Source of the DNA: Epithemia pelagica
Lineage: Eukaryota > Protista > Bacillariophyta
DNA length: 64,000 bases
Direction: 5' to 3'
Assembly (NCBI GenBank): GCA_946965045.2
Contig: OX337232.1
Coordinates: 2,356,001 to 2,420,000 of the forward strand
Shown here: piece by piece, positions 4,629-46,202 of the stretch
Layout of the letters: each line of letters begins with the position of its first letter
Position numbering within the stretch: position 1 is the first letter of the stretch
Position numbers and translations under genes: made by a program
Notes under the pieces: model-generated
What the model was told of the DNA's origin: nothing
The model's input: the letters and a program-made list of their open reading frames with translations, nothing else
Database searches by the model: none

Positions 4629-4864
4629 TGCCGCAATCTATCGTTATAGATGCGTCTCTTGTCGTACTCAGCGGTCAAATGATCGCTATGGTCAACAAAT
4701 GATGACGGTAGGCAGGGAACGGAAGGGAGAAGAGATGCAACAATCAAACAAAGCGGAATTATGATTCCAAACTGTGTGTGGGAGTTATTCTACTTTCTTG
4801 GCTCGACTCGCGCGCTCCAAGGCTGCTACCCCACTAGCATGCATACTTCCCCACTGTCACGACA
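4629..4864 (-). repeat. 3' LTR of copia 1
   Basis: Identical to 10769-11004 by direct comparison. Confidence 0.97.
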
Positions 4865-4873
4865 CTCCCTCTC
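4865..4873 (-). promoter_or_regulatory. Polypurine tract of copia 1
   Basis: GAGAGGGAG on the minus strand abuts the 3' LTR. Confidence 0.8.
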
Positions 4874-4913
4874 AGACGGAGGAGCGATTGCAGTTGAGCA
4901 ATTATAGTTTGGT

Positions 4914-9182: not shown

Positions 9183-10661
9183 TCATTCTTCATCGTCATC
9201 AAGGATGGATGCAGCGCCAACAAAAGCTAGGGAGGCTGCTCCAGCAGGTTTGGCTGTTTTCTTGTCGCCAGTTTGCGAAGAAGGCAAGTCATTTCGATGT
9301 GTGGCGGTGCCATGGGACAATCGCCAGAAACCACAAACGGCACACCAGTGCCAGTCAGTGCCGTTCACATTTTTCGTTTCTGGTTCGTTTGGTCCAGGCG
9401 CAATAGATTTCCATGGTGCTTTGGGGGCTTTAGACTTTTTGTTGGTCTTGTCGCCACCGTGTTGGTTTGCAGGGTTCTTGGGACAGTCTTTCTTTAGATG
9501 GTCTTCGGAACCACAAAGATAACATTTGCGTCCATTGCCTCCGCCTTTACCATTACCATTCTTGTTCTTGAGCGCGGCAGACACTTGTTTCTGCACGAGA
9601 TTGTTTATTTCAGCTTTGGTGAAGGTCAATGCTTCCGGTGGGTTTCCCGAATCGGCCTTTCCGGATGGGCCCCAGCGGTCGGCAGTCGAAAGGAGGGTGT
9701 ACTCTGCATTGGCTTCTTCAACCAAGTCTTGCACAGAAACATAGTCAGGTTCAGCTGAGCGTGCATCAATGGTAGCTTTGGATAAGCCATGCACTTTTGT
9801 GACCCACTGGTTCACGGCAGTACTCCGTGCCATAAATTTCACTCGAAACTGTTCAACCGAAGACGTGCACAGCTGCTCGTTGAGGATGAAAGGAGCATCA
9901 CTCGGCACATTGCGACCCAACTCAACGCAAGTCTGAAGAAACTTGGTTGTAAACACCTTAACATCTTCGCCTGGTGTTTGCCGCAGCTTTAGAGACTCTA
10001 ACTGGATCTTGAGAGCCTTGATTCGTTGGAATGAGGCTGTGCGCACTTCGCGAACGACGTAAATCCAAAGGATGGGTCCGTAGCGCAAATCTCTAGGTAG
10101 GAGTGGCCGAATGCTTGTTTTCACCGTTTCATCTAACACAGCCATGATTGCTTTGTATGCGAGGTCCATATTGTTAGTGGAGTAGTCGTCATACAGTGGT
10201 GTTGTCGCTGCTTGAGCATTTCGGAAGTGTGTGACAACATAAGCGGGTGAGAACTCCGAGTCCTCATGCAGAATGTTGACCAATTGTGTCGGATTCTGGG
10301 GATCTGGAAGGTAGAATTCCGCATCCATTCCGTGAAACTCCACATGCTCTGACACCAATTCTGCAAACTGTTCAATGGTCAGTTCCTTCTCGTCTCTGGT
10401 AAACTTTCGCGAATCGGTGTCGCTTGTCAAGATCGTTGTCTTGTACTTAAGTCCTTTGTGAGCCTCTGTTGGGTCCTGCAACTGGTAGCAGTAGGGGCTA
10501 CGTGGAACAGTTCGCGTCGTTGCGGTAAACGTGTTGTCTGTTGGCCTTCCTCCAGTCCATGGATGGATGCCATTCAACCCACCTAACCGTGGTCTCGTCG
10601 GTGCTCTCGGTGGAGTCGGTCGTGGTGTTAAAGGAGGAGCCGTTGTCGCTCCTGTTGACAT
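9183..10661 (-). CDS. gag: Copia 1 gag, 492 aa
   Basis: Position directly after the PBS; CCHC knuckle CYLCGSEDHLKKDC plus a second WHWCAVCG...H motif. Confidence 0.92.
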   Translation of the reverse strand: MSTGATTAPPLTPRPTPPRAPTRPRLGGLNGIHPWTGGRPTDNTFTATTRTVPRSPYCYQLQDPTEAHKGLKYKTTILTSDTDSRKFTRDEKELTIEQFAELVSEHVEFHGMDAEFYLPDPQNPTQLVNILHEDSEFSPAYVVTHFRNAQAATTPLYDDYSTNNMDLAYKAIMAVLDETVKTSIRPLLPRDLRYGPILWIYVVREVRTASFQRIKALKIQLESLKLRQTPGEDVKVFTTKFLQTCVELGRNVPSDAPFILNEQLCTSSVEQFRVKFMARSTAVNQWVTKVHGLSKATIDARSAEPDYVSVQDLVEEANAEYTLLSTADRWGPSGKADSGNPPEALTFTKAEINNLVQKQVSAALKNKNGNGKGGGNGRKCYLCGSEDHLKKDCPKNPANQHGGDKTNKKSKAPKAPWKSIAPGPNEPETKNVNGTDWHWCAVCGFWRLSHGTATHRNDLPSSQTGDKKTAKPAGAASLAFVGAASILDDDEE

Positions 10662-10756
10662 GGTAGTCGTCGTTGTTTCTTCCTTCTTGTCGTTGCGTCG
10701 TTGTTACGATTCCAAATCTCGTCTTTTCGCTTGTATGCTCACAAACCCTTCAACTT

Positions 10757-10768
10757 GGGCTCATAACC
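10757..10768 (-). promoter_or_regulatory. Primer-binding site of copia 1, complementary to the anticodon arm of initiator tRNA-Met
   Basis: GGTTATGAGCCC immediately after the 5' LTR; complement GGG-CTCATAA-CC is an iMet anticodon stem-loop. Confidence 0.85.
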
Positions 10769-11004
10769 TGCCGCAATCTATCGTTATAGATGCGTCTCTT
10801 GTCGTACTCAGCGGTCAAATGATCGCTATGGTCAACAAATGATGACGGTAGGCAGGGAACGGAAGGGAGAAGAGATGCAACAATCAAACAAAGCGGAATT
10901 ATGATTCCAAACTGTGTGTGGGAGTTATTCTACTTTCTTGGCTCGACTCGCGCGCTCCAAGGCTGCTACCCCACTAGCATGCATACTTCCCCACTGTCAC
11001 GACA
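10769..11004 (-). repeat. 5' LTR of copia 1
   Basis: Identical to 4629-4864. Confidence 0.97.
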
Positions 11005-12507: not shown

Positions 12508-13727
12508 TAGTTTTGAGTCCATTACCGGAAGTTGCTGCAAAAGTGTTGCTGTGGGTATTGTTATTTGGTATTGTGAAAGATGTCCTACTCTAGTAGAGAT
12601 GTCTAATTCTACTCCAATCTAGCTAGCCGTACTAGAAAAGAACTATGTCTCTATTTAGTACTCCGCAGTGCACTTCTCATCTAATACAATAGCTCTAGTA
12701 GAGAAGAGCTACGTATTAGGCATTCCTAACGTTTGCGGATAGCGGATATGGAAATAATTACTCCTAGTGCCTACTAGGGTGTCGTGCCCATGGAGGCCTA
12801 GTTTGCGCCCAAATCGAGGGTTTGGGAATCTGGATTTACTTCACCAATATCCATGATATACCCATAAGGATCAAGCATTGTAGACTCGAAACAATGCCTA
12901 AGGTCCCTGTAATATCACTTTTCATAGAACCACCATGGATAGAGATATTAATAGCTAAGGCATGGCCATTGTCGAACTTCGTGCCATTGTGGGCATGGTG
13001 GGCAGGTAATAGAGACTGTTGCAATAAGACGCCATATAAGGGTATGGAGCACATCCAGGCCATCAAAAGCATTAGGACTGATTTGCTGACGATGTGTTAT
13101 ATGTGCATGCAGTGCAATGCTGACATACTCGGCATTCGTTGCCGTTGAACATTGTGGCCATTGTTGGCACGTGCTTTGAGGTCTTGTTTGTGCTTCGTGC
13201 CATATATTGCCTCACATCTTTCCAAAATCAAACATTGAACACTCGTTCCCTCCTCTGATCATTCAACAACAATCACATGCAATATGCATTCAACTAATTC
13301 AGAATCTTTCGTATGTGATACGAACTTTACTTTGCTATTTCGGTAGTTCTAAAGATAACAATCATTGTTTTCCATCTTTAGAATTGAAAAGTTGGCATAG
13401 GAAAATCAAAAAGAGTTCAGCAATGGCAACGACAGCAACCAAGCAACCCCAGAAGAAGAACCCTAGCCTCTCAGTGGGTACAAAGGCCATCATCAAGACA
13501 GGTAATATTCCCTGCATCATTGTGAAGGCCAGGGCAAAGATGGAGTGGACCGTGCAGATTGTGGATGAAAATGGCTCTCCAACCCAGGATATAGTTGATT
13601 GTACCTCCCAGATGTTGCGGCACATCAGGAGGCACAAAGGAGAGATCTTCCCTGGAGAACCACAACCACCAAAAAATGTAGAAGGAGGAGGCACCGATGC
13701 ACTGCAAGGAGGGGAAGTGGGAGCAGG

Positions 13728-14511
13728 TGTTAGAATTCTCACCGTCTATGGTGGTTAGATTCTACATCTCATCGATTCCCCATGTCACATAGCCTCGTGC
13801 TATCGCATCATGCCATCTAGCTTCGAGCTATGTTCCCTAGCTTCGCGCTATATCGACCTATATTTCTTCGCAAATCATGAAAAGTGAGAATAGATTGACG
13901 AACTCACTCTCAAGACTAAACTGGGTCGTGCGGTATTACAACGGACGTAAATTTGGCCGTTGCTCGGACATTATACTAACGCCCTAAGCGTACGCGCCCA
14001 AAATCATCGAGCGCGCCCAAGCGACATCCGAGCGCTATCGGCATCTATCCGACCCAACGGTCTAAGTATCCCAAGCACGACACACGATCACGCGAGACCA
14101 TATTTCCATTCCCACAATCTCCAAATTGTCAACAAGCTGCGCGCCATGAAAACAACTATGCCAATCCAAAGCAAGAGCTGTTGACCCTGTATATGTTATC
14201 CGTCCACATATACATGTCATATACATCACATGAATCGACTCCAACTATTCCAAACCTGTTGCCGCCAAGAACCTATGACACATGACCCTTGGCAGGACCG
14301 AACATTTCACGTAGACCTATCGTAGTAATCAACACACAATCTAACAATATCACCATTTATCACATCCTCTTTTGTGTCCCGACTATCCTTTTGATAGACT
14401 ACGACTTGCTTTCCTCTCTTACCCGTGGAGAGGTTTGTATCGGTTGGTGACTACCTGATTGTCTGCTCTAATGAGCATTGATGTCCCTACAATTCAGAAA
14501 GAATTGTAACA
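13728..14511 (+). repeat. 5' LTR of copia 2
   Basis: Direct repeat of 21326-22109 with 9 substitutions and no indels. Confidence 0.96.
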
Positions 14512-14522
14512 GATTAACAGTC
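14512..14522 (+). promoter_or_regulatory. Primer-binding site of copia 2, complementary to a tRNA-Asn(GTT) anticodon arm
   Basis: GATTAACAGTC abuts the LTR; complement GA-CTGTTAA-TC is an Asn anticodon loop with self-consistent stem pairs. Confidence 0.7.
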
Positions 14523-14547
14523 TCAACGCTTATTTCCTTGTGGTTTC

Positions 14548-15327
14548 ATGGATACTAACGAGCTTATCACTCCTGTACGACAGATTTATCGAGCCAACCT
14601 GCATTCCGGGCAGCCCGACACCCTGGTGCAGCAGGAACTGGTGCCGACGTTGAAGGCAGCCAACACATTGGTCAACATCTCCGTCGACAGTTCCAACAGC
14701 AACCCATTCGAGACTCCAACCCAGCCTCACGCTCCGATCCCTGCGCCGTTGCTTCGGCCCCCGAGTCCGCCTCGTCGGCTCGTCCCTTCTCGATCCCGTC
14801 GTACCACCCGGTTGATTGCTGATCATATCAAGTACTTCCGTCAACCAACTTCTTCGACCTTCGATCCCGAGATCATCCGTGGGGAGACCCAGATCGAACG
14901 CCAGTTCCAATCGGTGACCCACATCGTCGACCAAGAAGACATTGAACGTCTGAACGACCAACTTCATCGCTCTCCGAGGCGTTGCCTCATCTTGGCCGCC
15001 CTCTCGGGCAACCCCATCCGTACTGTCCACCTCCGCTTCCTAACCTTCGAGCGCCCAACTGGATACTACAATACCATCTACGTCGTGAACACGACGACTT
15101 GCCCTCTGCCTCCTAACGTTGTACGCCTAGATAACTACGTTGCCTACATCCACGAGGTCCATACCATCGAGGACCATCGTGCAACTATCTTCCCTTTGCG
15201 TGCCGAGGCCGAGAACCACTTGGCTGAAGGTGATACCCCTTCTTCTGTTGCTTGTGCTGCCCCATCTGAGCCTGGAAACGACTCTGATTATTCGGAAGAG
15301 AGTGGAGATTCGGAAACTGAAGCTTAA
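14548..15327 (+). CDS. Accessory ORF ('ORF0', 259 aa, unknown function) upstream of gag in copia 2
   Basis: ATG 36 nt after the LTR, sense orientation, uninterrupted 259 codons, Pro/Arg-rich linker and acidic tail; no family recognised. Confidence 0.6.
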   Translation: MDTNELITPVRQIYRANLHSGQPDTLVQQELVPTLKAANTLVNISVDSSNSNPFETPTQPHAPIPAPLLRPPSPPRRLVPSRSRRTTRLIADHIKYFRQPTSSTFDPEIIRGETQIERQFQSVTHIVDQEDIERLNDQLHRSPRRCLILAALSGNPIRTVHLRFLTFERPTGYYNTIYVVNTTTCPLPPNVVRLDNYVAYIHEVHTIEDHRATIFPLRAEAENHLAEGDTPSSVACAAPSEPGNDSDYSEESGDSETEA

Positions 15328-15647
15328 TTACTCATAGTTAACTCCCGTCCTCTCAAAACCTTTCCAAGACTTAAACTCAACGCACATCCGGGTACCCTTG
15401 GTCGCACAACACGCCACACATTCCCGTCAAATCGCGAAAATTCGGCGAAAATTTGTTGAAACTCGGCGAAAATTTGTCGGAATCAACGGAAATTTCCAGG
15501 AGTCGCACATCACAGCACACATCCGGGTATCACATACGTGGTACATACGTGACACACGTGGTACATCCGGGTTCACATCACATCACACATTAAATAAACC
15601 ACATCACACCGCACATTAAATAAACATCGAACCAACCAAATAACACC

Positions 15648-16883
15648 ATGGATCCTCAATCACCCAAGACACCTACGACTCCTAAGGGAGAAGATAACCA
15701 AGACAATGTCTCGAACACAGACCTATTCGACCACATCATATTTACTGTCTGCCAATTCTTTACCAAGGAAAGGGCCGACTACTTAATGAAGTGGATAAAA
15801 TACCATGGTTTTGAGAACATTACCCGTGTTATCTCGTATATGCAAACTAATACCGAGGAATCCATGAACGAACTGACACAATACAAGGTCAACAAACAGA
15901 CACGTGATCTACAAGGCCCCACAAGACAGCAGATCAAGCTCTTGGCTTATTGGGCCATATACAAGACCAATGAAATTCAAGACGAGCTATCCAATAGCGA
16001 CTGGATGAACCTAACGAGGAAAGAGTTCAACACTTGGACGATCAACACAGATTTCTCTAAGGGACCACCTAGCCAAGTTCCAGTCTCGCCAATGAAGTCA
16101 CCGTCATCTGTGAAATCTGTCAGCACAGTTACTGCCGCATCCCAATCTCAACACGACCTTACAGCATTCAGAAAGGGAACTAAGCGTGACGCAACTGCGT
16201 ATGAGGTATTCAAGGATGAACGATCCTGCGATTCATTCTGGCGTGTATTCAAGACTACAGCTAAGGCTCAAGGCCTATCCAACGTTCTGAATTTCAAATA
16301 CACACCACCGCATGATGATGAGTATGCCGAAGAACTTTTTCAAGAGCAACAAGTATTTTTTTACTCCGTTCTTGTCCGTATCATTCAGACTGACCAAGGT
16401 CGAGCCTATGTACGTGAACATGAACATGATAAAGATGCGCGTGCCGTGTTGCAGAAGTTACACTCTTTGCATACCGAATCCGACCTAGCAAAACGAGAAG
16501 TCCTCCGTTTAACCAACTACATTTCCAATCTACGTCTTGACGACACATGGCGCGGAACAACACGTCAATTTCTTCTACACTTTCAAGAGCAGCTACGTTT
16601 GCTAGACAATCTAGTGACATTGTCTGATCGCATCCCTGATCATACCAGGATGACCTTCCTCATGCAAGCTGTAGAAAAGGTACCTGATCTTTGCCGAGTC
16701 AAGATCTTGGATAATGTGGTAAACACCAAATCTGGTGCAAAGTCCCTTTGCTACCAATCATACTTCCGTCTTCTTCTAGACGCAGCCTACGAGATCAAGC
16801 AACCCAGTCATCTGTTCAAAGTCGCCGTCGACATGTCAAACAACATGAATCACTATATGGCCAAGATACAGATGCTGACATAA
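15648..16883 (+). CDS. gag: Copia 2 gag (frame shifts into pol near 16790)
   Basis: CoDi-type gag motifs (FRKGTKRDATAYEVFKDE, QQVFFYSVL, DQGRAYVREH, TWRGTTRQFLLHF); the gag-like tail continues in the -1 frame (DQATQSSVQSRRRHVKQHE). Confidence 0.85.
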   Translation: MDPQSPKTPTTPKGEDNQDNVSNTDLFDHIIFTVCQFFTKERADYLMKWIKYHGFENITRVISYMQTNTEESMNELTQYKVNKQTRDLQGPTRQQIKLLAYWAIYKTNEIQDELSNSDWMNLTRKEFNTWTINTDFSKGPPSQVPVSPMKSPSSVKSVSTVTAASQSQHDLTAFRKGTKRDATAYEVFKDERSCDSFWRVFKTTAKAQGLSNVLNFKYTPPHDDEYAEELFQEQQVFFYSVLVRIIQTDQGRAYVREHEHDKDARAVLQKLHSLHTESDLAKREVLRLTNYISNLRLDDTWRGTTRQFLLHFQEQLRLLDNLVTLSDRIPDHTRMTFLMQAVEKVPDLCRVKILDNVVNTKSGAKSLCYQSYFRLLLDAAYEIKQPSHLFKVAVDMSNNMNHYMAKIQMLT

Positions 16884-19800
16884 CCTCACAAGATGATATG
16901 GAGTATCATGTCCACAACACCAAAGCGACATCTGAATCTCCATCCTCACCGTCCAAGGTTAGTCTACCGCGTGACCTATGGTTCAAACTTTCTGAAGAAG
17001 ATCGCAAGTTGATCATTGAGTATAACAAGATGATTCAAGCACCTTCATCAACAACACCGAGGAAAGTGCAAACACATGCCCTCGACATTGATCCGGAACC
17101 TGATCCTGACCCCAACCAAGTTGCATCTGATGACGACTCACCTGGCGCAGTCCCTGAGCATCCAGATGATTCAGATCCGGTTACACAATTTATCAACCAA
17201 GCCATGACAACTGATATCAATCACCCGGCAACTGACCTGACTAGTGTTCTTTCTAACGCCAAGTCCAAGAAGAGCAAGAAGGTTACTTTCAAAGCCAACA
17301 TGCATAAACAAGCAGGACATGTTCCACGCTATTTGTTTTCCAGGAAATCTACTTTACCAGGAAATCAATTGATTGACCGTGGTGCTAATGGAGGACTTGC
17401 TGGTTCTGACATGCGCATCCTTTCTAAGACTGGCCGCCATATCACTATTGTGGGTATTGATAACCATGAACTTACTGGACTTCCTGTCGTCACATGTGCC
17501 GCAAAGTTTGAGAGCAATGATGGACCTATTGTCGGCATCTTCAATGAATATGCTTATTATGGAAAGGGCTTATCTATCCATGCTCCTGGTCAATTCGAGC
17601 ATTTCGGACTTGCTGTTGATGAACGATCTGTTAAAGTTGATGGTAAACAACGCATCACTACACTTGATGGTCATGCTATACCCCTTCACATCAAGGATGG
17701 GTTAGCCTACATCCACTCCTTGGGTATCCCCAGCGACGATGACATGAATACCTTACCTCAGATCATCTTCACGTCACCCGACACATGGGATCCTGGTGTT
17801 CTGGACCATTCGCATTCTACCACACCCTCTGACAATGATCCTGATTGGAAACACGTCAAGACTGATGGTAGTATGTCGAACCATCCATATGACAACTATG
17901 GGGAGTACACTGATCGTGTTGTTTGTAACCTCAATCTCCTTTTGGATCTCCCATACGATCATGGACCTGACGACGCACCCTTCTTTTCTATCTATGCTGA
18001 CGCAGAAGGTAATGATCCTACACTTCATGCCTCTGTCCACCGTCGTTACCAGGAAGCGTATGACTGGAAGAAGTTCCGTCCATTCTTTGGTTGGCAATCT
18101 GAAGATGTTATTGCCGATACGTTCAAGCACACTACACGTAATGGTAGCATTACTCTTGACCACGACACCCTCAAGAAACATTTCAAGGCTCGCAATCCGG
18201 TCCTTAATATACCTCGACGTCATGAACCCGTTGCTACTGACTCGGTTTTCTCCGAGACCCCTGCTGTTGATCATGGCGGTAAAGTTGCACAAATCTTTGT
18301 TGGTCGAGATACTCTGGTTACTGATATCTATGGGATCAAGTCGACCAAACAGTTTGTCAATACTCTTCAGGACAACATCCGGTTTCGTGGTGCCATGGAG
18401 ACTCTTATCAGTGATGGTGGTTCATCTCTCATCTCTCAAAAGGTCAAAGACATTCTTCGCACTTTGCTTATTGGGGAGTATCGATCCAAACCTTATCATC
18501 AACACCAGAATAAGGCTGAAAACCGTTACCAGACCGTCAAACGTATGACCAACACTCTCATGAATGCCACTGGTTGCCCTGCCAACACCTGGCTTCTTTG
18601 CCTTGAGTATGTCTGTGACTTATTGAACCATACATCATCACCCACCCATTCCGGTCGCACTCCTCTTGAGGCTCTCTCCGGACGCCCACCCGACATTACT
18701 CATCTCTTGTTCTTACCTCTCTGGGATGAGGTTTACTACCGTGTCGACCCCGCTGAACCCAATTCTGGTTCATATCCATCTTCTTCTGATGAGAAACTTG
18801 GCCACTGGGTTGGTTTTGCTCACAACGTTGGTGATTCTTTTACTTGGAAGATTCTCACCCCGGATAACCAGATAATCTACCGTTCTGCCGTTCGCCGTGT
18901 TGAATCCACTACACCTAACCTACGTGTGGATCGACCTTCAGGGGAGGATTCGTCTGAGAAGGATGACAATGATAAGCAAGCTGACACTGTCTTCATTCGC
19001 AGTGATAGTGAAGATCCATCCAAACCAATGCCCACGATTGATTTTGACGACATGATAGGACGCACATTCCTATGCGACACAGAAGAAAATGGGGAGCGAC
19101 ACCGTGGACGTGTCATCAAACGAGTCATTGATCTTAATGAAGAAGCAACGAAACAGGAAAACCGTGTCAAGTACATCTACCGAAAGACAAATTCTGATGT
19201 TGATGAGATGATATCCTATAATCAACTCATGGAGTATATCGAACAAGATAACCAAGCTCAAACCTCTGGAGATAATCTTTTCAGGTTCAGGGACGTCATT
19301 GCCCATCAAGGCCCACTGAACACAACTGATCCAGATTACAAGGGGAGCAAATATAATTTGCTTGTTGATTGGGAAACTGGGGAGACTACCTATGAACCTT
19401 TATTACTCATCGCCAATGATGATCCGATCACTGTAGCAATTTATGGAAAGAAACATGGTTTACTCAACAAACCTGGATGGAAGCATTTGAAACGTTATGT
19501 CAAAACAAGCAAACGTCTCGTTCGAGCAGCCAAACAGTCAAGGATTAAACAAGTTCACCATTCCGTCAAGTATAAGTTTGGATTCCAAGTACCACGCAAT
19601 TATGAGGAAGCTGTCGCTCTTGATAAACAACATGGCAACACAAAGTGGCAGGATGCAACAGAATTAGAATTGTCACAGATCCAGTCCTACAAGACATTCA
19701 AGGATTTTGGGAAAGCCATCTTCATTAAAGGGAAAGTATCCAATGCACCTGAAGGATATCATTAGATACGTGTACATCTTGTCTTTGACGTAAAACATGA

Positions 19801-21331
19801 TGGACGACATAAAGCAAGACTTGTCGCAGATGGACATCTCACAAAAGAACCTGTTGAGACAATCTATTCAGGTGTTGTTTCTATTCGCAACCTCCGCATT
19901 GCCTTATTCCTGGGTACTTTGAATGACTTGGAAATATGGGGAGCAGATATTGGAAACGCATATCTGGAAGCCTTGACAGGGGAGAAAATCTTCATTGTCG
20001 CAGGACCTGAATTCAAGGAATTAGAAGGTCACATCCTGATTATATACAAGGCACTTTATGGATTGAAGTCATCAGGCGCACGCTGGCATGATGTCTTATT
20101 CGATGTTTTGACAGACATGGGATTTTCACCAAGCAAAGCAGATCCGGATATCTGGATGAGGAAAGCACCTGGAGAAGACTGTTACGAATACATTGCCGTA
20201 TACGTTGATGACTTAGCCATTATTTCTACTGATCCTGGGAATATCTGCAAGATCCTGAAGGAGAAATACGACTTCAAACTCAAAGGAGATGGACCTATTG
20301 ATTTCCACTTGGGATGTTGTTACACCAAGGATCCTGATGGAACATTAGTAGCAGATCCAAGACGCTACATTGGTAAGATGGTGGACACTTTTGAATGAAT
20401 CTTCAAGGAGAAACCCAAGAAAGCCAAAACACCTCTTATTGGTGGAGACCATCCTGAATTGGATGATTCTGAGCTCCTTGATGAAGAAGGTACTAGCCAT
20501 TTCCAAACTCTGATTGGACAACTCCAATGGGTGATCACTATTGGTCGTTTCGACGTCTTCACCGCTACAATGACGCTATCACGCTTTCGTGCTGCTCCGC
20601 GGAAAGGACATCTTGATAGAGCCAAGCGTATCTATGGATACCTTGCACATCTCCCAGAAGGCGCAATCAGATTTAGGATTGGAGAGCCTGATTATTCAAG
20701 TCTTCCTACCCAAGAATTTGATTGGACTCGCACTGTCTATTCGAATGCAAGTGAACGTATTCCTGAAGACTGCCCAACACCTCTTGGCCGCTATGTTACC
20801 ACAACTCATTATGTTGATGCCAATCTCATGCATGACATAGTCACTGGTAAATCCGTCACTGCTGTTCTACATTTGTTGAACGGAACACCTATTGACTGGT
20901 ACAGCAAGAGACAGAGCACGGTGGAAACTGCTACCTATGGATCCGAGTTTGTAGCTGCAAGGACAGCAATAGATCAGATTACAGAATTACGACATTCTCT
21001 CCGCTACCTTGGAGTATCTATCCGAGAGCGAAGTTACATGTACGGAGATAACAGATCTGTTGTGCTCAATGCAACCGTTCCTCATTCCATACTATCCAAG
21101 AGACACCATCTTCTGTCATACCACCGAGTTCGTGAAGCCATCGCAGCAAAGTATGTTGCATTCTACTGGAAAGATGGAAAGACCAACCCTGCCAATATCC
21201 TTAGCAAACATTGGGATTTCGTATCTATTTGGCCCATGCTCAAGCCATTGTTGTTTTGGAAAGGAGAAGTTCAAGACCTCAACAAATCTAATGATGACAA
21301 GGCTGAAACGACGAGTTGTGGGGAGTGTTAG
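16748..21331 (+). pseudogene. pol: Copia 2 pol (PR, IN, chromodomain-like, RT, RH) with premature stops
   Basis: Track ORFs 16748-19765, 19919-20398 and 20459-21331 share one frame; stops are TAG at 19763-19765 and TGA at 20396-20398. Motifs LIDRGANGG, VATDSVF...LISDGG, ADIGNAYL, LYGLKSSG, VYVDD, YVDAN, SKRQSTVE. Confidence 0.93.
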
Positions 21332-22109
21332 AATTCTCACCGTCTATGGTGGTTAGATTCTACATCTCATCGATTCCCCATGTCACATAGCCTCGTGCTA
21401 TCGCATCATGCCATCTAGCTTCGAGCTATGTTCCCTAGCTTCGCGCGATATCGACCTATATTTCTTCGCAAATCATGAAAAGTGAGAATAGATTGACGAA
21501 CTCACTCTCAAGACTAAACTGGGTCGTGCGGTGCTACAACGGACGTAAATTTGGCCGTTGCTCGGACATTATACTAACGCCCTAAGCGTACGCGCCCAAA
21601 ATCATCGAGCGCGCCCAAGCGACATCCGAGCGCTATCGGCATCTATCCGACCCAACGGTCTAAGTATCCCAAGCACGACACACGATCACGCGAGACCATA
21701 TTTCCATTCCCACAATCTCCAAATTGTCAACAAGCTGCGCGCCATGAAAACAACTATGCCAATCCAAAGCAAGAGCTGTTGACCCTGTATATGTTATCCG
21801 TCCACATATACATGTCATATACATCACATGAATCGACTCCAACTACTCCAAGCCTGTTGCTGCCAAGAACCTATGACACATGACCCTTGGCAGGACCGAA
21901 CATTTCACGTAGACCTATCGTAGTAATCAACACACAATCTAACAATATCACCATTTATCACATCCTCTTTTGTGTCCCGACTATCCTTTTGATAGACTAC
22001 GACTTGCTTTCCTCTCTTACCCGTGGAGAGGTTTGTATCGGTTGGTGACTACCTGATTGTCTGCTCTAACGAGCATTGATGTCCCTACGATTCAGAAAGA
22101 ATTGTAGCA
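21326..22109 (+). repeat. 3' LTR of copia 2
   Basis: Direct repeat of 13728-14511. Confidence 0.96.
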
Positions 22110-23585
22110 GCAGGAGCCTGGAGGAACGTCAGTGAGGTGCAGGAATGGGAGAAACCGTGGAACAAGTGTCGGGTGGGACAGTGGCAGGTACAGGAGGGAT
22201 GCTAGGTGAAAGTGAAGGGATGACAGGTGTAGGAGTAGAAGGGATGGGTGTAGGAGCAGAAGGGACGCATAGTGTAGGAGCAGGAGAGATGGGAGGAGCA
22301 GAGGGAACCTGTCCCATGTAGGAGTAGGAGGGACAGGTGAAGGAGCATAGGGAACGGGTGCAGGTAGAGAAGGGATGGTGGGACCAGCAGAGGAGCAAGA
22401 CAACAAAGGCTATGAGTATCCCTCTCCAATGGAGGAAGAAAGCAGGAAACCAAACTTTGGACGAATCAGCAATGTGTCGAACACCACAATGTCCTCATGT
22501 GGCACTGGAGTCAACAGTAATTTGTCGTTTGACTTTGGGGAAAATCAGCCAGACCTTCATGCTGAAGCCTTTTACCACAACACTCGCTTTCCTTAAGCTG
22601 CTTACTCGAAGAACTACTAGTTACATTTACTGTTGAAACACTCACTTAGTCTATGAATAGAAATAGGAAAACACAGTGATGAAAAGAAGATACGTCCAAT
22701 CGATCAGAGAGCATACACACTGAAGAGTCCACCGTAGCCTCACCAAACTTAAAAGTTCCTTAGAACACACCACCAAGGTCTCAAAGTCGCAATTCTAGCC
22801 TGGTTCATTCGATTTCCATGAAGTGGTGCACCATTCCCAACCCTGCCCATTGGCCAAAAACGAGCCCAAATCGTGCCCACTGAAAAAATGGTCCTACTTT
22901 AGCTACTTCTATCTCTATAACCATGGCCCATGGACAAGACCACCCATCAAGGGGACCGAAGGCATTGTCTGGAGATGCTAAATATCGAACACCATGGTCT
23001 GGGAGTCAATATTCGAGAAGTTATCCCCCATTCCCAACCCTGCGATTTGGGCGCAAAACCGCGCGCCCTGGGCGCGCCACCCTAGTAGGTACTAGGAGTA
23101 GAGAGGAGTACTAGTTACTAGTTATTATGATGGACTGGACTCTCGACTCGATACTCGAGCTCCTCACGACTACGTAACTCTCAATGTACACCCAAGTTAA
23201 GATGGGACCAAGGAACATGGTCAGGCCACGTCATGAAGTCTGAGCATTGGCGTTGGAGTGTAAGTCGGGCGGTCCACCCAAAAGAAGAGCCGGCCTCGCT
23301 GTCACACAAAGAATGAGGCAGAACGGGCGTGCAACTCGGAAGAGAGAGTTCCAAAAAGAACATGTGCATCCCATCTACTGCGACAAAGCCTCTTCCATTC
23401 CATATCTCAAAGTGGACTGCCTCCAAATAGAGGATCGTCCGATTCAAGAGGCATGGGCACTCTTGAATCAAACAACAATGCGCCAACAATGGATCCCTAA
23501 TGGAGCGCGACATGCGATCCATGACAAACAAGCAAAGACGCAGCAAACAAAACAAGAGGGACACGGAGAGCTCACTCTTTGGGTT

Positions 23586-23763
23586 TTCTACGGTTCGTCG
23601 GCGAAGGTCTGATCCCCTTTGGCGCCGTTCTTGATTTCTAAAGAGTTGAAACTCCAACTTTCGTGGGTACTGATAGTAGCCATTTCTTCTACGGTTCGTT
23701 GGCGAAGGTCTGATCCCCTTTGGCGCCGTTCTTGATTTCTAAAGAGTTGAAACTCCAACTTTC
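23586..23763 (+). repeat. 77-bp direct repeat pair in the leader of the YR element
   Basis: 23586-23662 and 23687-23763 differ by one C/T and are separated by a 24-bp spacer. Confidence 0.9.
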
Positions 23764-23799
23764 TCTGCTCACTTCGCTCTCTTACTTACTCCTTCTACC

Positions 23800-26256
23800 A
23801 TGTCGGTTCCTCCTCCTCCTCCTCCTGCACAGGATGCTGATACGCTCCTCTCTGCGCTCGTCGCTTCGGCCTCCGTGGCTAACACCCCTGCGGCTGGGGC
23901 CGCCCGTCCTTCTACGGCGGCTTGGGGGGGGGACCGCGGTCAAATCTCCTTTGCTGCTGACCCTCCCACGGATGAGATGATGGTTCAAGGCACGGAAACC
24001 GCATTGTTTCCCGAGAGCACCACGGACCCTACTGTCCTTGGACGCTCTACCGGTGGTAGTAAGTTTGGTGTCGTGGCACTTCGCACAAGCGAATGTGCAG
24101 ACAAGTTGTTGTGTTTGGGTCTCAAGCGCGGCAGAGCAACCTTTTGCATCGACCCCAAGTGCGCTAAAGCCGGGGACCATGGAACTGGTCTAGCTCCCGT
24201 CGACTTGGGACCCTCAGGAGGATTGTTCATTACCAAGAACCCTGCCTCTGCCTTTTGCACTCCGGTTATCTCGTTGAGTGAGATCTCTCAGGAGACACTG
24301 GACCAAGTCCAGCATGAAAAACACACTATGGAAGAATGGACGAAGAAATTTGTTGCTATGAAACGTCTTAATCAAGTTAAGAAAGAAGGTCACCTGGATG
24401 CCAGTCTGAAGGAAACGGAGCATAAAATCTCCAAGGCTGACTCCCTCCGTACCCCGTTTACACTCAAGAAAGCTACCTCTACCTCCACCTCCTTCGTCGT
24501 TGAGAATTTCTCTCCTCACCATAAGATTTTGGACGGGGATCTGAAGGATGTGATTCGGAAGATTACTGTTGACTCCTCCTTGGTTCCGATAACTCTTCGC
24601 GAAATCGAAGACTTGGTGATGGAAGCAGGAGAAGTGATCCAGACTTTGTCCTTGGAACAACAAGCCATTTCGCGTCAAAACAGCACAGCCGTTGAAGCTC
24701 TAGGAATCAAATTTGATAAACTGTCCATGGAAATTGGACCTCGAGAGGACTTGCCGGACGAGTACCAAGCCCCGACCCTCTGGGGAATCATCTCTTCGAT
24801 GATTCGTTCCATTCAAGAATCCTCTCCCTCGACGACTGAATCTCACCAACGTGCTGTGGATAGTCGCCTTGCCGCGGTTAAGTCCTCTATTGCTACTTTC
24901 TTCTCAACCATCCAAGGCCAAGTCTCTTCGAAGTTGTCCTCGACCCAAGTTGAGACTCGTAACTCGGTAGACAAGCTTCGAAACCAATTCGTGCAAGGCT
25001 TCAAAGGAATCCTCGATCGCTTGTCGGCCCTTGAATCCAACACGACACTCACCAACCGTATCTTGACCATTGAAACTAAGATGTCGTCCCATGAAATTTT
25101 GCTTAGCCAACTGGGAACCTCCCCGCAGATGTTCGGTGCAACACAGACGACATCCAACACAGGATCACCAGCCCTTCAAAACAAAGTCACTGCTCTTGAA
25201 GGGGAAATCGCGAATTTGAGGACCCTCTTGGGAGATGCCAATTTGGAAATGCAACGTCTCAAGGGCAAGGTCGACACTTCCACCATCAAGTTCGGAAATC
25301 TCGGCTTAGCAACGGTTGATGACTGCAAAGCCTGGGTGGCCCTCAAGTTCGGGTCAAGAGCGAACGGTCTTTTGTTTGATCTCAACTTGGTGCTTGAATG
25401 GTGTGCCCCGCAGGAAAATGGGGATGTTTTATCCATGCTGACTACCATGGAAAAACGACACAAGATGCAGATCGCGACAACAAATGAAGCTCGAGCGATT
25501 TATGCGATGAAGAATGAATTTCCCCAGCTCTTGTACAAAGATTTCCCTGGCACCGGGCGGGACCCTTCGTTTCTTACTGCGATGAAAGAGTACTTGGATT
25601 GGGAGTCGCCCGAGACGGGAGTTCGTGACCGAATCCTGAATCGTCTAGGCAACATGAATTCTATGTTCGGAGAACAAATTGCCACAACGATGGCCAATGA
25701 ACCTGAAGCCCGTTCCTTAGCCTTATCTATGCTATCTGTTTCGGTGGGTTGTTGCCGTGAATTGGTAACCTATTTTGATGAAACCATGAATGAACTCACT
25801 ATCAAGTCGAAGTTTACTACCCGCAAGGCCTTCAGTTTGGTTACCCAAGTGGTCAGGCGCTTCTTCATGGACTTATACAAGGTTAGGGCTCAAGTCTACT
25901 CGTCTCTTTCGACCACTGATAGTGCTGGCCAGTGCGCATGGATCCTTTACGGCGTTCTCCGTACCCACGATGTTATGAGCGATTACGTCAAAGCTCGTTT
26001 CAAGAACCATCCGTCCGTTTCAAGCGAATACATTCGCTTCCTTTCTACCAACTCGGGCTTCGAGTCCCTCAAGACGCTAGAAGATCAAGTGGAATCCTTG
26101 AAGCGTACCTCTGCTCAGCTGGTCAAAGATGTTACCTCGGCCAAGAAAGCTTCCGACACGGCCAGCAGCACTGTGGACAGTGTCAAAAAGGATGTGACCG
26201 AATTGAAGAAACAAGCCCAGCGTCGTGGAGGATCTACCAACGGTGACAAGAAGTGA
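23800..26256 (+). CDS. ORF1 (gag-like, coiled-coil) of the YR element, 818 aa
   Basis: Long intact ORF first in the element; N-terminal CLG...FCIDPKC...H motif and heptad-rich segments. Confidence 0.8.
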   Translation: MSVPPPPPPAQDADTLLSALVASASVANTPAAGAARPSTAAWGGDRGQISFAADPPTDEMMVQGTETALFPESTTDPTVLGRSTGGSKFGVVALRTSECADKLLCLGLKRGRATFCIDPKCAKAGDHGTGLAPVDLGPSGGLFITKNPASAFCTPVISLSEISQETLDQVQHEKHTMEEWTKKFVAMKRLNQVKKEGHLDASLKETEHKISKADSLRTPFTLKKATSTSTSFVVENFSPHHKILDGDLKDVIRKITVDSSLVPITLREIEDLVMEAGEVIQTLSLEQQAISRQNSTAVEALGIKFDKLSMEIGPREDLPDEYQAPTLWGIISSMIRSIQESSPSTTESHQRAVDSRLAAVKSSIATFFSTIQGQVSSKLSSTQVETRNSVDKLRNQFVQGFKGILDRLSALESNTTLTNRILTIETKMSSHEILLSQLGTSPQMFGATQTTSNTGSPALQNKVTALEGEIANLRTLLGDANLEMQRLKGKVDTSTIKFGNLGLATVDDCKAWVALKFGSRANGLLFDLNLVLEWCAPQENGDVLSMLTTMEKRHKMQIATTNEARAIYAMKNEFPQLLYKDFPGTGRDPSFLTAMKEYLDWESPETGVRDRILNRLGNMNSMFGEQIATTMANEPEARSLALSMLSVSVGCCRELVTYFDETMNELTIKSKFTTRKAFSLVTQVVRRFFMDLYKVRAQVYSSLSTTDSAGQCAWILYGVLRTHDVMSDYVKARFKNHPSVSSEYIRFLSTNSGFESLKTLEDQVESLKRTSAQLVKDVTSAKKASDTASSTVDSVKKDVTELKKQAQRRGGSTNGDKK

Positions 26257-29200
26257 CGGTGTGCCGCGCCTAAACTAGATGAAAACGTTTCGTATGTTGA
26301 CTCTGGTTTAGACGCTGGTAGTATTGCATCATCTTTAAGCAGTCTGGGACCTGGCTCTCCTGGTGGTGTTGGCGCCAAACGTCCAGCCTCACCACTGCCT
26401 AGCATTGTCGTTTCGGTTACACGCTCCAGGCATCGTCCTACTGATCGCGGATCACGGGTCTTCCGAAGTGATTTGTCGTGTCTTATCCTTGGTCAAACAT
26501 CCCTTTCGTGGGGACTTGGTCTCAGTCTCGGGGACTGGCACGGCATTTACATGTTGGCTGCTGAGTATGAAGCACGACGAGAGAACCCCTTTTGGCGTGC
26601 CGTTTTGCTTCATTTTGGGGATAAGCTCCACTTAGTCCCAAGCATCGATGTTGTTCTGGGACGAGGGATCATTTCGGTTGTACTGTTGGAAGGCGATCCT
26701 GATTACCTCGCGTCTTCCTTGCTTTTCGTCCCTCCGAGTTGGCCTGTTTTATTGTTGCTTCCTTCGGGATGGAGTCGCCCCACCCTTCCCCAAGTCCAAT
26801 GGTTGTCGGTCACCCATCGTCAATGTGGTGGTGTCACGACCGCTCGTGTCCACGTTGGGCGTCGTGGTATACCTCCGTTGTTTTTCCATGTCACCACGCG
26901 GCGCACGCTGGGTTCGATCATCTCGCATTCAGTCCGTCCTTCCCCGTGTGGGGCGCCCACTCTGCCTGATCCTTATTACTCCTGTGACGATCAGTTGCAC
27001 ACCCGTGCTCTTTTCAAGCCTATTCGGTTGTCCACGCACTTTTCAAAGACGGGTTGGGGTTGTCGTCCGCTTACTGATGAAGAAATTGGAACGGCGTTCG
27101 ATTTGCCGCTTTGGGTCATCAATGATACGATTGCTTTTCGTTGGTGGTGCTCCCACATGATTCATCCGCGAGTTATTCCCATCAAGATCCCAGCTTTATT
27201 GTTGAATTCCGCTTTACCACACTTGGACCCTGTTCTGATTCACCACACTAGTACCGCCGGCAACAAACATGGTGGACCCTCATCCCCGTTTCGTCCCTGC
27301 AAACGCGGCCGTTGGTTGACCCCTCTTTCGGAAACTGTCCAAGATGGCGTCCTGGGTACCACCTTTTCCTTCTTGCCCGCCTTTCTCCCTCATGACGCGT
27401 GGCTCGACGATTCCAAGATTGCGGATATTGCGGTTAAGGCAGACGACGCCCTGGCCCCTTTTTGGATCTGGGATGGGCGGATTCGGGGCATCTACCCTTG
27501 GATCACAGATTCGGCGCTTTCAGGCTTCCGTTTGTTGGCTTTGCTTTGGTGGCGTCGCTCCTTGGTGCGAAGTTTCTTGGCTTATTTACGCTTGCGGTTT
27601 GGTGCGAATTGGCCAGCCTTAGTGGCCTCTTCACCACTCCAGGGGGGGGAGGAGTCTTTCAATTTCGATTCGTTTCCCGTACTGCTATCCGCCGGCCGCT
27701 GTGTCTTGTCCCAACTTCTTCGTTCCACCTGGTGGGACTGGGATGCGGGTTCTTCGTTGATTTTTTGGCGCTGGAACGGCCTCTCCCAACAAGCAGATGC
27801 CTGGTTTGGCACTCCCATCCATGTCACCGATGCTCTTCCTTCTTATCATCGGCGTCAGCGTGCTCCTCCTGCGGAAATACTCCCTCAAGTCTCCAAGAAA
27901 TTATCGACAGTGCTCGAGCGTGGTTATTTGGACGGTGTCTCTCCTCCCTCCAGCATGACCGACTACTTCGCTGTTCCAAAAGGCGACAATGACATTCGGA
28001 TGGTCTATAATGGCACAAGCTGCGGGTTGAATAAGTCTCTGTGGGCACCAAATTTTTGGTTACCAACGTCTGAGTCGGCTCTACGACTATTAACCACCGA
28101 TTCCTACTGTGGGGACATGGATTTGGGGGAAATGTTTTTGAATTTCCCCATGGACGTACACCTTCAACCCTATGCTGGTGTAGACATGAATCCTGTCCAG
28201 TCACACCTCACCCCAGAAGCTACAGCCCTCTCTCCTGAATCTGGTAGGGTGCGGTGGAATCGTTTATTTATGGGTATGCTTCCGAGTCCCTTCCACGCCG
28301 CCCGCCAATACTACCTGGCTGAGGAAATAGCAAAAGGAGCACCACAGGATCCAACCAATCCGTGTGGTTTTGATTCAATTCGCTTTAACATCCCTGGCTC
28401 CGCCGATTACACCCCAACTTTGCCTTGGGTCATGAAGTGGAGCTCTAGACTCGACAACATTACGGGAGATGTAGTTACCTACATGGACGACTTGCGAACG
28501 GTCGGTTCCTCAGCCAAACATGCTTGGCAGGTGGCACGTCAACTGGGGGCTAGATTGCAATATCTAGGAATTCAAGACGCACCTCGAAAGCGGAGACCAC
28601 CTTCCAAAACTCCCGGCGCATGGGCTGGCAGTGTACACCATATCTCAGCCACGACCATATCAAAAGCCCTCACCCAAAAGAAATGGGACAAGGGCAAGAA
28701 ACTCCTGGAAAAATACGTGGATGCATATACCAAGAGTGACTCTCCCACGTTCGATCACAAGCAAATGCAACGAGACGTGGGCTTCTTCGTTCATCAAGCG
28801 CTGACCTACAATTCGCTAATGCCCTTCTTAAAGGGATTCTATTTGACTATGAATGTTTGGAGACCCGGGCGCAATGGCGAGGGATGGAAGCTGTCAACAA
28901 GGGAGTGGCTTTCCCAGTTACAAGAAAAGTTTGGGGACGAAGAAATCAACACCATTTGTGGTTTCTTAGACACAGATGAAGATGAAGACTCGCATGCAGA
29001 ACCAACCAACAAAGAAAAGGACATTCCACCAGCACGGGTCAAGGCAGTTCCGAGGCTGCGAACCGATGTATGAGCCATTGCGGTCATGCTAGGCTCAGAG
29101 GATCCTCCCAAGGTCCAAGTCAGGTCGGACACCATCTTTGTTGCATTATTCGGATGTGGCGATGCTTCGGGATGTGGATTCGGGGCAGCCTTCCAACTCC

Positions 29201-30183
29201 CTCAAAAGAAACTGTCGTATAGAGTGGGAGCATGGGGAAAGGACATCGTGGTAGGTGAATCTTCCAACTGGAAGGAGTTTACCAACTGTGTAGAGTCGCT
29301 GGAGGAAGAAGCGTCCTTGGGCCATTTGGACAACACAGAAGTCTTCTTCTTCACAGACAACTCAACCGTCGAACGTTGTTTCTACAAGGGCTCATCATCA
29401 AGTCCAAAACTGCTAGAACTAGTGATCCGTCTACGACGACTAGAGATGCGCCATGCAATACGGCTGCATATCTCCCACGTATCAGGAAAGAGGATGATCG
29501 CTGTGGGAGTGGATGGCATTTCTAGAGGGCAATTGAACGAGGGAGTCATGGCTGGGACTCCCATGTTATCCTATATTCCTCTTCACAAGACCCCATTCCA
29601 GATGTCTGAGAATCTGTTCGAATGGGTTCGTTCTTGGTTGGGACCCAAAGCAGAAGCGCTAACCCCCATGGACTGGTTCACAACAGGCCACAACATCCGG
29701 GGATGGTCCCTCCCAACAGAACATAACAAACTGTCCCTGCCTATCCTTTGGCCAGGACATTTTGTGTGGGCTCCGCCTCCAGGAGCAGCTGATGTGGCTC
29801 TCGAGGAATTGAGAAAAGCACGTCACAAAAGACAATCTTCCATGCATGTTTTTCTTTGTCAACGCCTGCTTACTCCGAAATGGTATAAGCAGTTACACAA
29901 GGCATGCGATTTGGTTATGGAGATCCCTGCTGGAACTTCTTTTTGGCCTGAAGGAAATTATGAACCTCTCATCGTTGGTCTTGTTTTTCCTTTTATTAGG
30001 GCACAGCCGTGGCAATTGCGGGGCACCCCAAAAATGTTCTCAATGGACCGCCAATTGCGCAAATTGTGGAAAGAAGATCCAGTGGGTGGAAGGGATCTTC
30101 TGCGGAAATTTTGCGTTCAGTGTTGGAAAATGCAGTCCATGTCGAAACGCATGGTGCGCAAGTTGTTATTCTTCAAACGATGA
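26257..30183 (+). pseudogene. pol: YR element pol: putative C5-MTase-like domain, RT, RNase H, Dam-like MT relic; one internal TGA
   Basis: Same frame as ORF1 with no stop from 26257 to 29070; TGA at 29071-29073 lies between RT and RH (track ORFs 26473-29073 and 29086-30183 share a frame); YMDD at 28480-28491. Confidence 0.85.
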
Positions 30184-31570
30184 GGGTCGGTTCTTTGTGG
30201 CTTCCAGGAACTTGATGGTGGAAGAGTCGGACGCGTCCCGGATCGTAGCAGCCAATTGGAGAGCGCGCACAAAGGACCGACGAGAAGATTATAGTCATGC
30301 GTGAGCGGGTGATCACTTGATGACTCCTTTCGAGTGTGATTGGTGCATCTTTCGAAAGTTGAGAGGTGAGGAACCGGACCCGAGAAGCGTGCGAGACAAG
30401 TGCTTGATGGTGTGTGTGAGACGCATGAATCTCGATGCATTTTGGAGTCGGGCAACAAGCATAGTCGCGCAAAACACTAGAAATGCCAAAAAGATGATCG
30501 AGAAGTCAATGAAAGTGGGAATCCCTTATGGACCGTTCATGAGCCACGGCCCGTTCCCGAGTTACGATCATTGTGGGTACCAAGTGGCATATTTGATGTT
30601 GGACAGTTCGTTGGACGAGGGAAAGTATCATACGGATAGAAAGCAATTTGACACCATCCGGAAATTTCGATCGGTGTACTCCAATCACGTGAGAGCAACA
30701 CCGGCCACTTTGGTTGATAATCGACCCCTGGTTTTGACGGACAACAATGGGAAAGCCTTCTCTCGGTTGGGCCAAGACGAGAGCGGATCATTATGGTTTT
30801 CAAGATTTGTTGAAGGTTGTCGCCAACGGATGGGCCAAGACTGGCGCCCGGACCAAGCAATATCCAGCGAGTTGGTTGTTGCGTTGCTGGGTTCCTTGGA
30901 AGAAGAATTGAGGCGCGCAAACAATGTGACGGACCCATTTGTGACGGTTATGGCGGGAACCTTTTATGCTGTGTCTTTTGCTTTGTCCTTGAGAGGGCCG
31001 GAAGGGCTGCTCCTTGATTTAGGAGCCATGACTCGATACGCAGATCTTTACAAGGACCGGGATTGCGTGGTGGTTTGTCTTTGGGGCCAATTCAAAGGCG
31101 AGCATTCTGAACGGGCTCATCTCCTCCCCTGCTGCAATGTAACAGGGAGTGGAATCAAAGTTCGCCAATGGTTGAACAGAGCAATGGTCTTGTCTCGGGA
31201 CATTGGACGAACGACCGGGCCGTTGATGATGGATCGAAAGGGTGTACCCATCGCGCCACGAATGCTGGATGACATCCTGCATCGACATTTGTGCAAACTT
31301 TTCGACGACGACAAAAACCTTTTTCCTCTGACTGCCATCAAAGGGGAAGAGGACATCGTCACAAAATACTTTGTGTTCCGATCTTTCAGACGGGGTTCGA
31401 ATACAAGAGCAAAAGAGGTGGGCGTCGAGCAGCCAGACCTTGAAACTGTCAACCGATGGAGAATAAAGGAGAGAGCAGGAGCCAATAAACCAGGCGGGGC
31501 CATTGACCACATGTATGCAGACCTGTCGATGCTTGTGGGGCCGTTTCTCCGGTACAGTTCTGCAATGTGA
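29846..31570 (+). pseudogene. Tyrosine recombinase of the YR element, overlapping RH in the +1 frame; one internal TGA; start uncertain
   Basis: CSPCRNAWCASCY, SHA*AGDHLMTPFECDWC, LSLRGPEG (catalytic R), KGEH, FRSFRRG, RW, DHMY (catalytic Y); TGA at 30302-30304. Confidence 0.85.
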
Positions 31571-32300
31571 CGACCAAACCAAGATTCTCGGTGGAGGGGG
31601 TTTCTGGAACTGGCAAGTTGCGTTGAGGCTGACATGGCAAGGCCTCTTCGCTTCTTGTCCATTAGAGAGAGAGTTTGAGCCGATTGCGTCCCCTGTCCGT
31701 TTCCGCCTTTGCGATTGCATGGCGCAACCTGATCGCGTTGGTGGGCCACAAGCGGATCCAACAGGAGTCTTGATTTGGGTCTTTCTTTTTGTTCTTTTGG
31801 GCCGGTTCCCCTGTCTGAGCATTATGCCAGATCGGACCCTGAGTGGTGAAGGATTACCCTTCCCCCCACAACACAACCTAAACTAGTGTTTACGGTTGCG
31901 AGAATCTAATGAGATAAGTTTATGATTTGATTCTGCTGTTTGTCTTTGTGTTTGCGCGAGAGAAAGGGATCCTGAGGTTGGATGGCGACATGGTGGGTGC
32001 TGAGCAGGGTTTGCGAGTGCCCCTATTCGTACGAGTACACCACTGATACATTAGACTTAGAGGGGGACTGACGACTGACGGCAAGTTGACGCGTGGCATC
32101 CATGAAATGGCGAAGGCTGTCGACCTACATGGAGTGTGAAAGAACATCAGCGATCAACGAGTCGTGTCCGATCGAGCGTCTGAATGTGAATGGGAATGGT
32201 GAGACATCGTCTGTCGTCTGGGTGTCTTCGCAATATTGGGTGTTCTCATAATTTCTCAAATTCGATATATCTGTAAACGAGCAACGAAAGTCAAACAACC

Positions 32301-45840: not shown

Positions 45841-46080
45841 TGAATAAAAACTGACGGCCAGACGCAATATACGGCTTGCAACAATCAAACTATCAGAAAT
45901 TATGATGACTAAACTAGGGGTGCCCTTTGGGGGCAAATCGCTCATGTAGGGGCCAAATAGCGACCACGGTACCCACTAGCGAACACATAACTAGGGGCCG
46001 GGCGATGCCAGGCGGTGCGTAGCGAGGCATGGCGAGGCCCTTCGTAGGTTACAAAGGGGGCGCCCGTGATTATTTATTCA
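45841..46080 (-). repeat. 3' LTR of copia 3
   Basis: Identical to 52996-53235. Confidence 0.97.
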
Positions 46081-46202
46081 GTCCCCGCGAACAAAATCGG
46101 GGTGGGCAACTTCGTTTAGTTCGTCATGTCAGCAGAGGCCGGTCCAGTACGTCGGACTATTCTTCAAAAGGGGGCGATCCCATTTTGGATCTAAAAGGGG
46201 TG

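Follow-up and report, generated by a model that had tools for sequence, protein, structure and literature searches.

The window analysed here, a stretch of 64,000 nucleotides from the diatom Epithemia pelagica (contig OX337232.1), contains a retroelement whose Pol frame begins with some 250 residues in which a first-pass annotation recognised by eye the motifs of a degenerate cytosine-C5 methyltransferase. This locus therefore raises two questions, namely whether a resemblance read from a few short motifs reflects a true methyltransferase fold and, if so, what such a domain would do in a mobile element once its catalytic residues have gone.

Fold of the N-terminal domain of Pol

The domain spans positions 26428-27230 of the plus strand, on which all the features of the element described below are located, and corresponds approximately to residues 58-325 of ORF2. 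The region 26416-27246 was modelled with AlphaFold2 without templates from an alignment of 140 relatives, giving a mean pLDDT of 94.1 and a pTM of 0.89, with all five models above 93. In the predicted model the two-domain fold is present, with motifs I to X in order and the recognition domain lying between VIII and IX. Foldseek searches against the PDB placed M.HaeIII first (E 3.5e-6), followed by DNMT2, M.HhaI and DNMT3A, so that the two enzymes proposed for comparison in the first-pass annotation, M.HhaI and DNMT2, were among the top matches; against viral models, cytosine methyltransferases also ranked first. VIA-align comparison with 48,161 chains retrieved 19 at Z ≥ 8, all 19 of them C5 cytosine methyltransferases whose alignments extend over 230-250 residues and include the small domain, the best at Z 14.2 (rmsd 4.2, 244 aligned), while the best other fold reached Z 7.2. 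Since every chain at Z ≥ 8 is a C5 enzyme, the fold appears to be of the C5 type and not that of class I methyltransferases in general. Hence, prediction assigns to the domain the complete fold of a C5 cytosine methyltransferase, and the resemblance first noticed by eye exceeds chance.

The sequence link to C5 methyltransferases, taken alone, is not significant. The PF00145 profile returned no row for the ORF of the window, for 5 full-length Pols or for 106 of 168 homologues (E ≤ 1-10), and hhalign against 9 intact enzymes gave a probability of 2-5%, with only motif IX scoring, compared to 0.1% in the reversed control. A profile built from the 9 intact enzymes found no match among 303 proteins (best E 11), no C5 link emerged from PHROGs or from PDB searches by sequence or profile, and the top matches of an ESM Atlas search, which compares features rather than structures, were unrelated or unnamed and gave no C5 link. 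Thus, of the two kinds of similarity on which the first-pass annotation had made its assignment depend, the structural one was found and the profile one, to PF00145, was not. By its defining residues the domain is not a member of PF00145, but judged from the model it is derived from a C5 methyltransferase, and it is likely non-enzymatic. DNMT3A was the best match by Foldseek TM-score (0.55-0.58) and M.HhaI by Z, reaching 15.6 in a follow-up structural comparison (rmsd 3.9, 236 aligned) against 14.2-14.7 for the others, including DNMT3B at 14.7. As M.HhaI, M.MpeI and DNMT3A/B lie within about 1.5 Z of each other and identity to the structural matches is 8-12%, the donor subfamily cannot be named.

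Catalytic motifs and conservation across the family

We infer the motif register from the strands of the model and from a low-scoring but collinear hhalign path that agrees with them. The four peptides quoted in the first-pass annotation are all within the ORF, with that beginning WLSVTH starting at 26800 and that beginning RPLTDEE ending at 27108, and its motifs I, VIII and IX fall in register with both model and path. Motif IV had been placed at SIDVVLGRG (26641-26667), a placement that we rejected, for this segment is largely helical in the model and not conserved, the commonest residue of a column reaching 11-35%; the motif-IV position lies about 12 residues further on, at VVLLEGDP.

Motif counts were made on 175 non-redundant domains, obtained from 268 matched proteins of which 190 were long enough, after filtering at 90% identity. 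The catalytic set of C5 enzymes comprises the cysteine of motif IV, the glutamate of ENV and two arginines of QxRxR (PMC4802922). At the motif-I position (strand 1 and helix A; 26473-26523, residues 73-89), F-E-x-x-P-x-W replaces FxGxG; the FxGxG SAM loop occurred in 0 of 144 sequences, with W85 in 145/151 and P83 in 117/147. The motif-IV position (26677-26709) carries the peptide VVLLEGDPDY (26677-26706), in which strand 4, VVLLE, is followed by a G146 (167/175) that runs straight into a helix, the Pro-Cys loop being absent. No domain had the catalytic Pro-Cys at G-x-P-C spacing (0/175); a PC dipeptide appeared 10-17 residues past the position in five, and a cysteine somewhere in the unaligned segment 146-152 in fifteen. 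From G146 to V164 in strand 5 the median distance is 18 residues (13-30) as opposed to 38-47 in the 9 intact enzymes, which leaves about 20 residues of the catalytic loop missing. The strand of motif VI (26746-26799) lacks ENV in all 175 domains; the next helix is absent and a short loop with a conserved R/K174 stands instead, so that motifs VI and VIII are separated by 17 residues (14-32), against 30-40 in the same intact enzymes. At the motif-VIII position (26800-26859), H187, G191, G192 and T194 are near invariant while QxRxR is lost, RxR persisting in 2/175 and the window copy reading T-T-A-R-V. The remainder, 26860-27220, comprises a small target-recognition-like domain, motif IX with the pattern GWGxRxLxxxE...FDLP, and the motif-X position (P308), within an aligned range of 14-272 of the model.

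From these losses the domain almost certainly cannot methylate cytosine, in agreement with the first-pass annotation as to a dead enzyme without Pro-Cys. Its term 'degenerate' requires qualification: the domain is dead, but the same losses recur across the 175 homologues, none of which retained PC at motif IV or ENV, and being family-wide they indicate a conserved pseudo-enzyme rather than the decay of one copy.

A profile of 7 close homologues drew 503 cluster representatives at E ≤ 0.001, 353 weaker ones lying outside the matches listed, while scans of metagenome contigs gave 0 and 1 locus. A probe from the reverse transcriptase found 145 relatives, the best 120 of which are listed, all at least 43% identical in the probe. 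All 88 listed relatives in which 400 or more residues precede the probe carry the domain, the remaining 32 starting too late for its presence to be judged; no intact, catalytic relative occurred among the 120 listed of 145. Likewise, the most divergent members among those listed were no closer to intact enzymes. Near-invariant positions include H187 (170/175), R216 (169/174), E276 (168/170) and P308 (165/165), followed by W85, G146, G191, G192, T194, L247, R270 and L272. Median identity is 23% in the domain and 51% in the reverse transcriptase, and the pairwise identities of the two regions co-vary (rho 0.57, 97 proteins, 0/999 permutations), as expected for long co-descent. Taken together, the family-wide loss, the retention of the domain and the lack of any intermediate to intact enzymes among the members listed suggest that catalysis was lost long ago and that selection maintains the dead domain. 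According to the model, the fold would be kept without the chemistry by distinct elements that number at least in the hundreds.

The retroelement and the synthesis of its Pol protein

In contigs of two samples, position 23179 is followed immediately by 32022, with 1 ambiguous base at most, and this empty site fixes the limits of the element at 23180-32021 (8842 bp). At the joint, any target-site duplication would amount to a single base at most; tyrosine-recombinase retrotransposons insert without such duplications. Repeat searches at both ends detected neither long inverted terminal repeats nor split direct ones above the shuffled background, and an internal complementary region of the DIRS type was not found either. 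This is a young, multi-copy recombinase element devoid of detectable terminal repeats (23180-23700 and 31571-32021). The empty site is bordered by the short inverted matches TACTCG and CGAGTA (23152-23179 and 32022-32038), and with high depth over these flanks too, the insertion may have gone into another repeat. Sequencing depth is raised over both ends of the element, and one contig (X3) at depth 619 links 23690 to 31599 through 22 other bases; an abundant non-autonomous derivative with about 510 and 420 terminal bases likely lies behind it. Immediately upstream of ORF1, the 5' untranslated region contains a 77-base direct repeat (99% identical, spacing 101) at 23586-23763.

Three long plus-strand frames make up the element. 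ORF1 (23800-26256, in a frame open from 23743) is rich in coiled coils, ends in TGA and is presumed gag-like from its position. ORF2 (P0001, to which residue numbers refer) runs from stop to stop over 26257-29073 (938 aa) and continues in frame past its stop to 30183, and the third frame, tyrosine-recombinase-like, extends over 30182-31570. The stop at 29071-29073 is private to the window copy, as is that at 30302-30304 in the third frame: P0003, a database protein of 98% identity, has an arginine in place of the former, and covering contigs of three runs (X1, X2 and X3; two samples) carry another base and hence a sense codon at 29071, as well as a sense codon at 30302. The recombinase frame is also open upstream (29813-30301), overlapping the end of Pol, and contains several C-x-x-C pairs that could form a zinc finger.

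The reverse transcriptase core (28078-28575) includes YMDD at 28480-28491, and the RVT_1 profile supports it at E 0.039, below the cut-off. The region at 29130-29529, which we take to be RNase H, and the presumed tyrosine recombinase at 30182-31570 were assigned by eye from their motifs, neither having a match in the libraries tried, Pfam and PHROGs among them. This layout of a gag-like ORF, RT with a presumed RNase H and a presumed recombinase would fit the DIRS-like, tyrosine-recombinase affiliation that the element had initially been given. The N-terminal position of the methyltransferase-like domain in Pol likewise holds, but it is not adjacent to the reverse transcriptase, from whose core about 240 conserved residues separate it. 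These include a tryptophan-rich stretch (residues 390-560, 27430-27940) with K[AS]DD, WWxWxxGS and FWRW, which is family-wide and had no library match. At the other end of Pol, a Dam-like, N6-adenine methyltransferase-like domain (29530-30183; model pLDDT 92) has N6-adenine methyltransferases as its top structural matches, PCIF1 at Z 7.8 and E. coli Dam at Z 6.2, middling values with none above 7.8 and Foldseek E ≥ 0.07; motif counts show [FY]-x-W-x-P-P-P where N-P-P-Y/F is expected.

The ORF1 stop lies in the context TGA-CGG, in frame with ORF2, and is followed by a predicted stem-loop (26254-26326; z −3.60, none of 200 shuffles equally stable). UGA-CGG or UGA-CUA with a 3' stem constitutes the type II readthrough signal (PMC3159437), and these two contexts account for 58 of 4485 stops in the six frames of the window. 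A contig of run X1 across the junction (26168-27018) has 8 differences, none at the stop. Given this context, the stem-loop and a first in-frame ATG only at residue 99, downstream of the conserved motif-I region, we consider production of Gag-Pol by UGA-CGG readthrough likely, at a little better than an even chance. In the one relative with DNA (L001) the upstream frame ends in TGA-CTA, but the domain lies in another frame, with its own ATG and an internal stop; this and two close relatives with a methionine directly before motif I weigh against readthrough.

Readthrough is also possible in Copia elements of the host. In each of two minus-strand Copia-type LTR elements in the window (4629-11004 and 45841-53235), both with 100% identical LTRs, a TGA interrupts the single frame that holds gag and pol, in the contexts TGA-CTG (9183-9185) and TGA-TGG (50439-50441). 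Another Copia-type element (13727-22110), with 786-base LTRs that are 98.9% identical and with in-frame stops, ends about 1 kb before the studied element.

Possible roles of the dead fold and known elements

We give about an even chance to a role of the pseudo-enzyme as a non-catalytic nucleic-acid-binding module that would retain the RNA:DNA or cDNA intermediate of the element itself within Gag-Pol. The ancestor of the clade would have acquired a functional DNMT, in the manner of SymbioDIRS-Dnmt3 elements, and would have lost its catalytic chemistry early, while the small recognition domain, motif IX and the arginines R174, R216, R227 and R270 would have been kept for binding. Readthrough of the gag stop would yield Pol in small amounts, and with so little of it the domain would act in cis in the particle, on its own reverse-transcription product. 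This reading derives from what the family kept (the recognition domain, motifs IX and X, and the arginines) compared to what it lost, the parts serving chemistry. The recognition domain and motifs IX-X are both covered by the structural match, whereas DNMT3L (Z 6.8, 141 aligned) does not extend over them; basic residues prevail at the four arginine columns (R174 92%, R216 97%, R227 81%, R270 98%), and net charge is positive in 145/175 domains, with a median of +5 in a family whose 9 intact counterparts range from −9 to +6. The CpG observed/expected ratio is 0.84 in the element, 1.01 in the pseudo-methyltransferase domain and 0.87-1.15 in neighbouring elements and a gene, a lack of depletion that leaves no mark of self-methylation. 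On the other hand, the deleted catalytic loop contacts the minor groove of DNA in DNMT1 and DNMT3A (PMC6316889), so that the domain may bind weakly or no longer at all; the charge bias is small and the identity of the domain low next to that of the reverse transcriptase, and most of the invariant residues (G, P, W and the motif-IX R/E pair) allow a purely structural interpretation.

An anti-silencing decoy, the function envisaged together with DNA binding in the first-pass annotation, appears unlikely. The dead fold would mask CpG or 5mC sites in newly inserted copies, or pair with a host DNMT and poison it, and insertions would thereby escape methylation. Diatom transposable elements are silenced by DNMT5-dependent CG methylation (PMC9998398), and DNMT3L exemplifies a dead DNMT fold that can work through active partners (PMC6316889). 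Both private stops of the window copy are CpG-type transitions, but such changes amount to 9 of the 26 listed transitions between copies, with no clear excess (33 of 40 listed differences analysed), and a domain encoded in Pol behind a stop codon would probably be present in low amounts and confined to the particle, not free in the nucleus. The broader proposition that marine tyrosine-recombinase retroelements include a large clade, so far overlooked, in which a captured methyltransferase turned into a DNMT3L-like counter-silencing reader or decoy against host 5mC, with a second altered methyltransferase at the other end of Pol, we hold to be similarly doubtful.

Somewhat less probable is that the domain persists as a structural relic, kept since the folding, processing or packing of Pol depends on it and binding nothing specifically. 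The preponderance of G, P, W and L and the motif-IX R/E pair at invariant positions would fit, as would the disappearance of both substrate- and cofactor-facing loops and the low identity. Yet none of the long relatives listed has lost it, other DIRS elements function without such a domain (PMC3783388, PMC5890265), and the polar H187, T194, R174 and R216 are near invariant. The conservation of H187 (97%), T194 (88%), W85 (96%) and E80 (71%) could instead point to a repurposed enzyme, with new chemistry or a ligand site built from these residues, R216 and their neighbours, an option that we find improbable. A PC dipeptide at residues 230-231 in 65/175 domains might add to it, but sits in the recognition domain rather than in motif IV and is missing from most members, and the window copy has Q80. 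A metal site formed by H220, C231 and H240 was rejected: the raw association (p 2e-20) is bound to clades, and 7 close pairs differing at C231 yielded one that agreed and one that opposed at H240. That the domain is an active, very divergent cytosine methyltransferase marking its own cDNA, as proposed for SymbioDIRS-Dnmt3 and suggested by the predicted whole fold and its position in Pol as in the published elements (PMC5890265), is hardly credible in a family without nucleophile, ENV or glycine loop, with RxR in 2/175 and CpG not depleted.

The closest precedent to this putative binding module is found in the SymbioDIRS-Dnmt3 elements of Symbiodinium (de Mendoza et al. 2018), where a DNMT with conserved key residues lies in the Pol of DIRS-like elements (PMC5890265). 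They share with the window element the tyrosine-recombinase type, a C5-type DNMT domain inside the Pol ORF, a separate recombinase ORF, a reverse transcriptase poorly seen by Pfam and a domain co-evolving with it. In contrast, their DNMTs are detectable with PF00145 and some methylate CG in yeast, whereas here PF00145 misses the domain and the catalytic motifs are lost family-wide; they also have A-B-A-B split repeats (PMC5890265), while the window element has none above shuffles. In the species table of that work, two diatoms appear with 4 DNA_methylase genes apiece. The layout resembles that of DIRS and Ngaro retrotransposons in its gag-like ORF, its pol with RT and a presumed RNase H, and its overlapping, presumed recombinase ORF, the Dam-like domain being placed as in DIRS (PMC3783388). 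Neither the inverted terminal repeats of DIRS nor the split direct repeats of Ngaro were found in it, and it differs from both in its extra N-terminal C5-type domain (PMC3783388).

The combination of cytosine- and adenine-methyltransferase-type domains in one retroelement is reminiscent of EpiLTRs and DAM-DIRS (bioRxiv 10.64898/2026.05.21.726589), and the Dam-like domain follows the presumed RNase H as in DIRS, DAM-DIRS included (PMC3783388; bioRxiv 10.64898/2026.05.21.726589). EpiLTRs are LTR elements with a chromodomain, DNMT4-like DNMTs and a DAM that keeps Asn-Pro-Pro; unlike them, the window element is of the tyrosine-recombinase type, both of its methyltransferase-like domains are altered (W-x-P-P-P in the second) and no chromodomain was seen. 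The available text of that preprint makes no mention of diatoms, nor does the available text of a diatom DNMT survey contain a passage on recombinase elements (PMC9998398). With DNMT3L the domain shares an inactive C5-methyltransferase fold, which in that protein is kept for a non-enzymatic role (PMC6316889); DNMT3L is a host cofactor of DNMT3A/B, whereas this domain is part of a mobile element and retains the recognition domain and motifs IX-X.

Retrotransposon DNMTs are thus already known with their catalytic residues, the new aspect being a form that is dead across a whole family, of which we found no other case in retroelements in the full-text literature, a body with few subscription journals and with Repbase outside its scope. 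Degenerate copies might be shown in the supplementary figures of PMC5890265. Surveys of retrotransposon methyltransferases published so far take Pfam profiles as their entry point and emphasise intact active sites and, as PF00145 misses this domain, profile-based counts of DNMT-bearing elements would be too low. That the fold was kept and its chemistry discarded across the family suggests that retroelements also carry domains of this type for reasons other than methyl transfer, and these compact, predictedly well-folded 270 residues offer an object on which the function of methyltransferase domains borne by transposable elements may be addressed.
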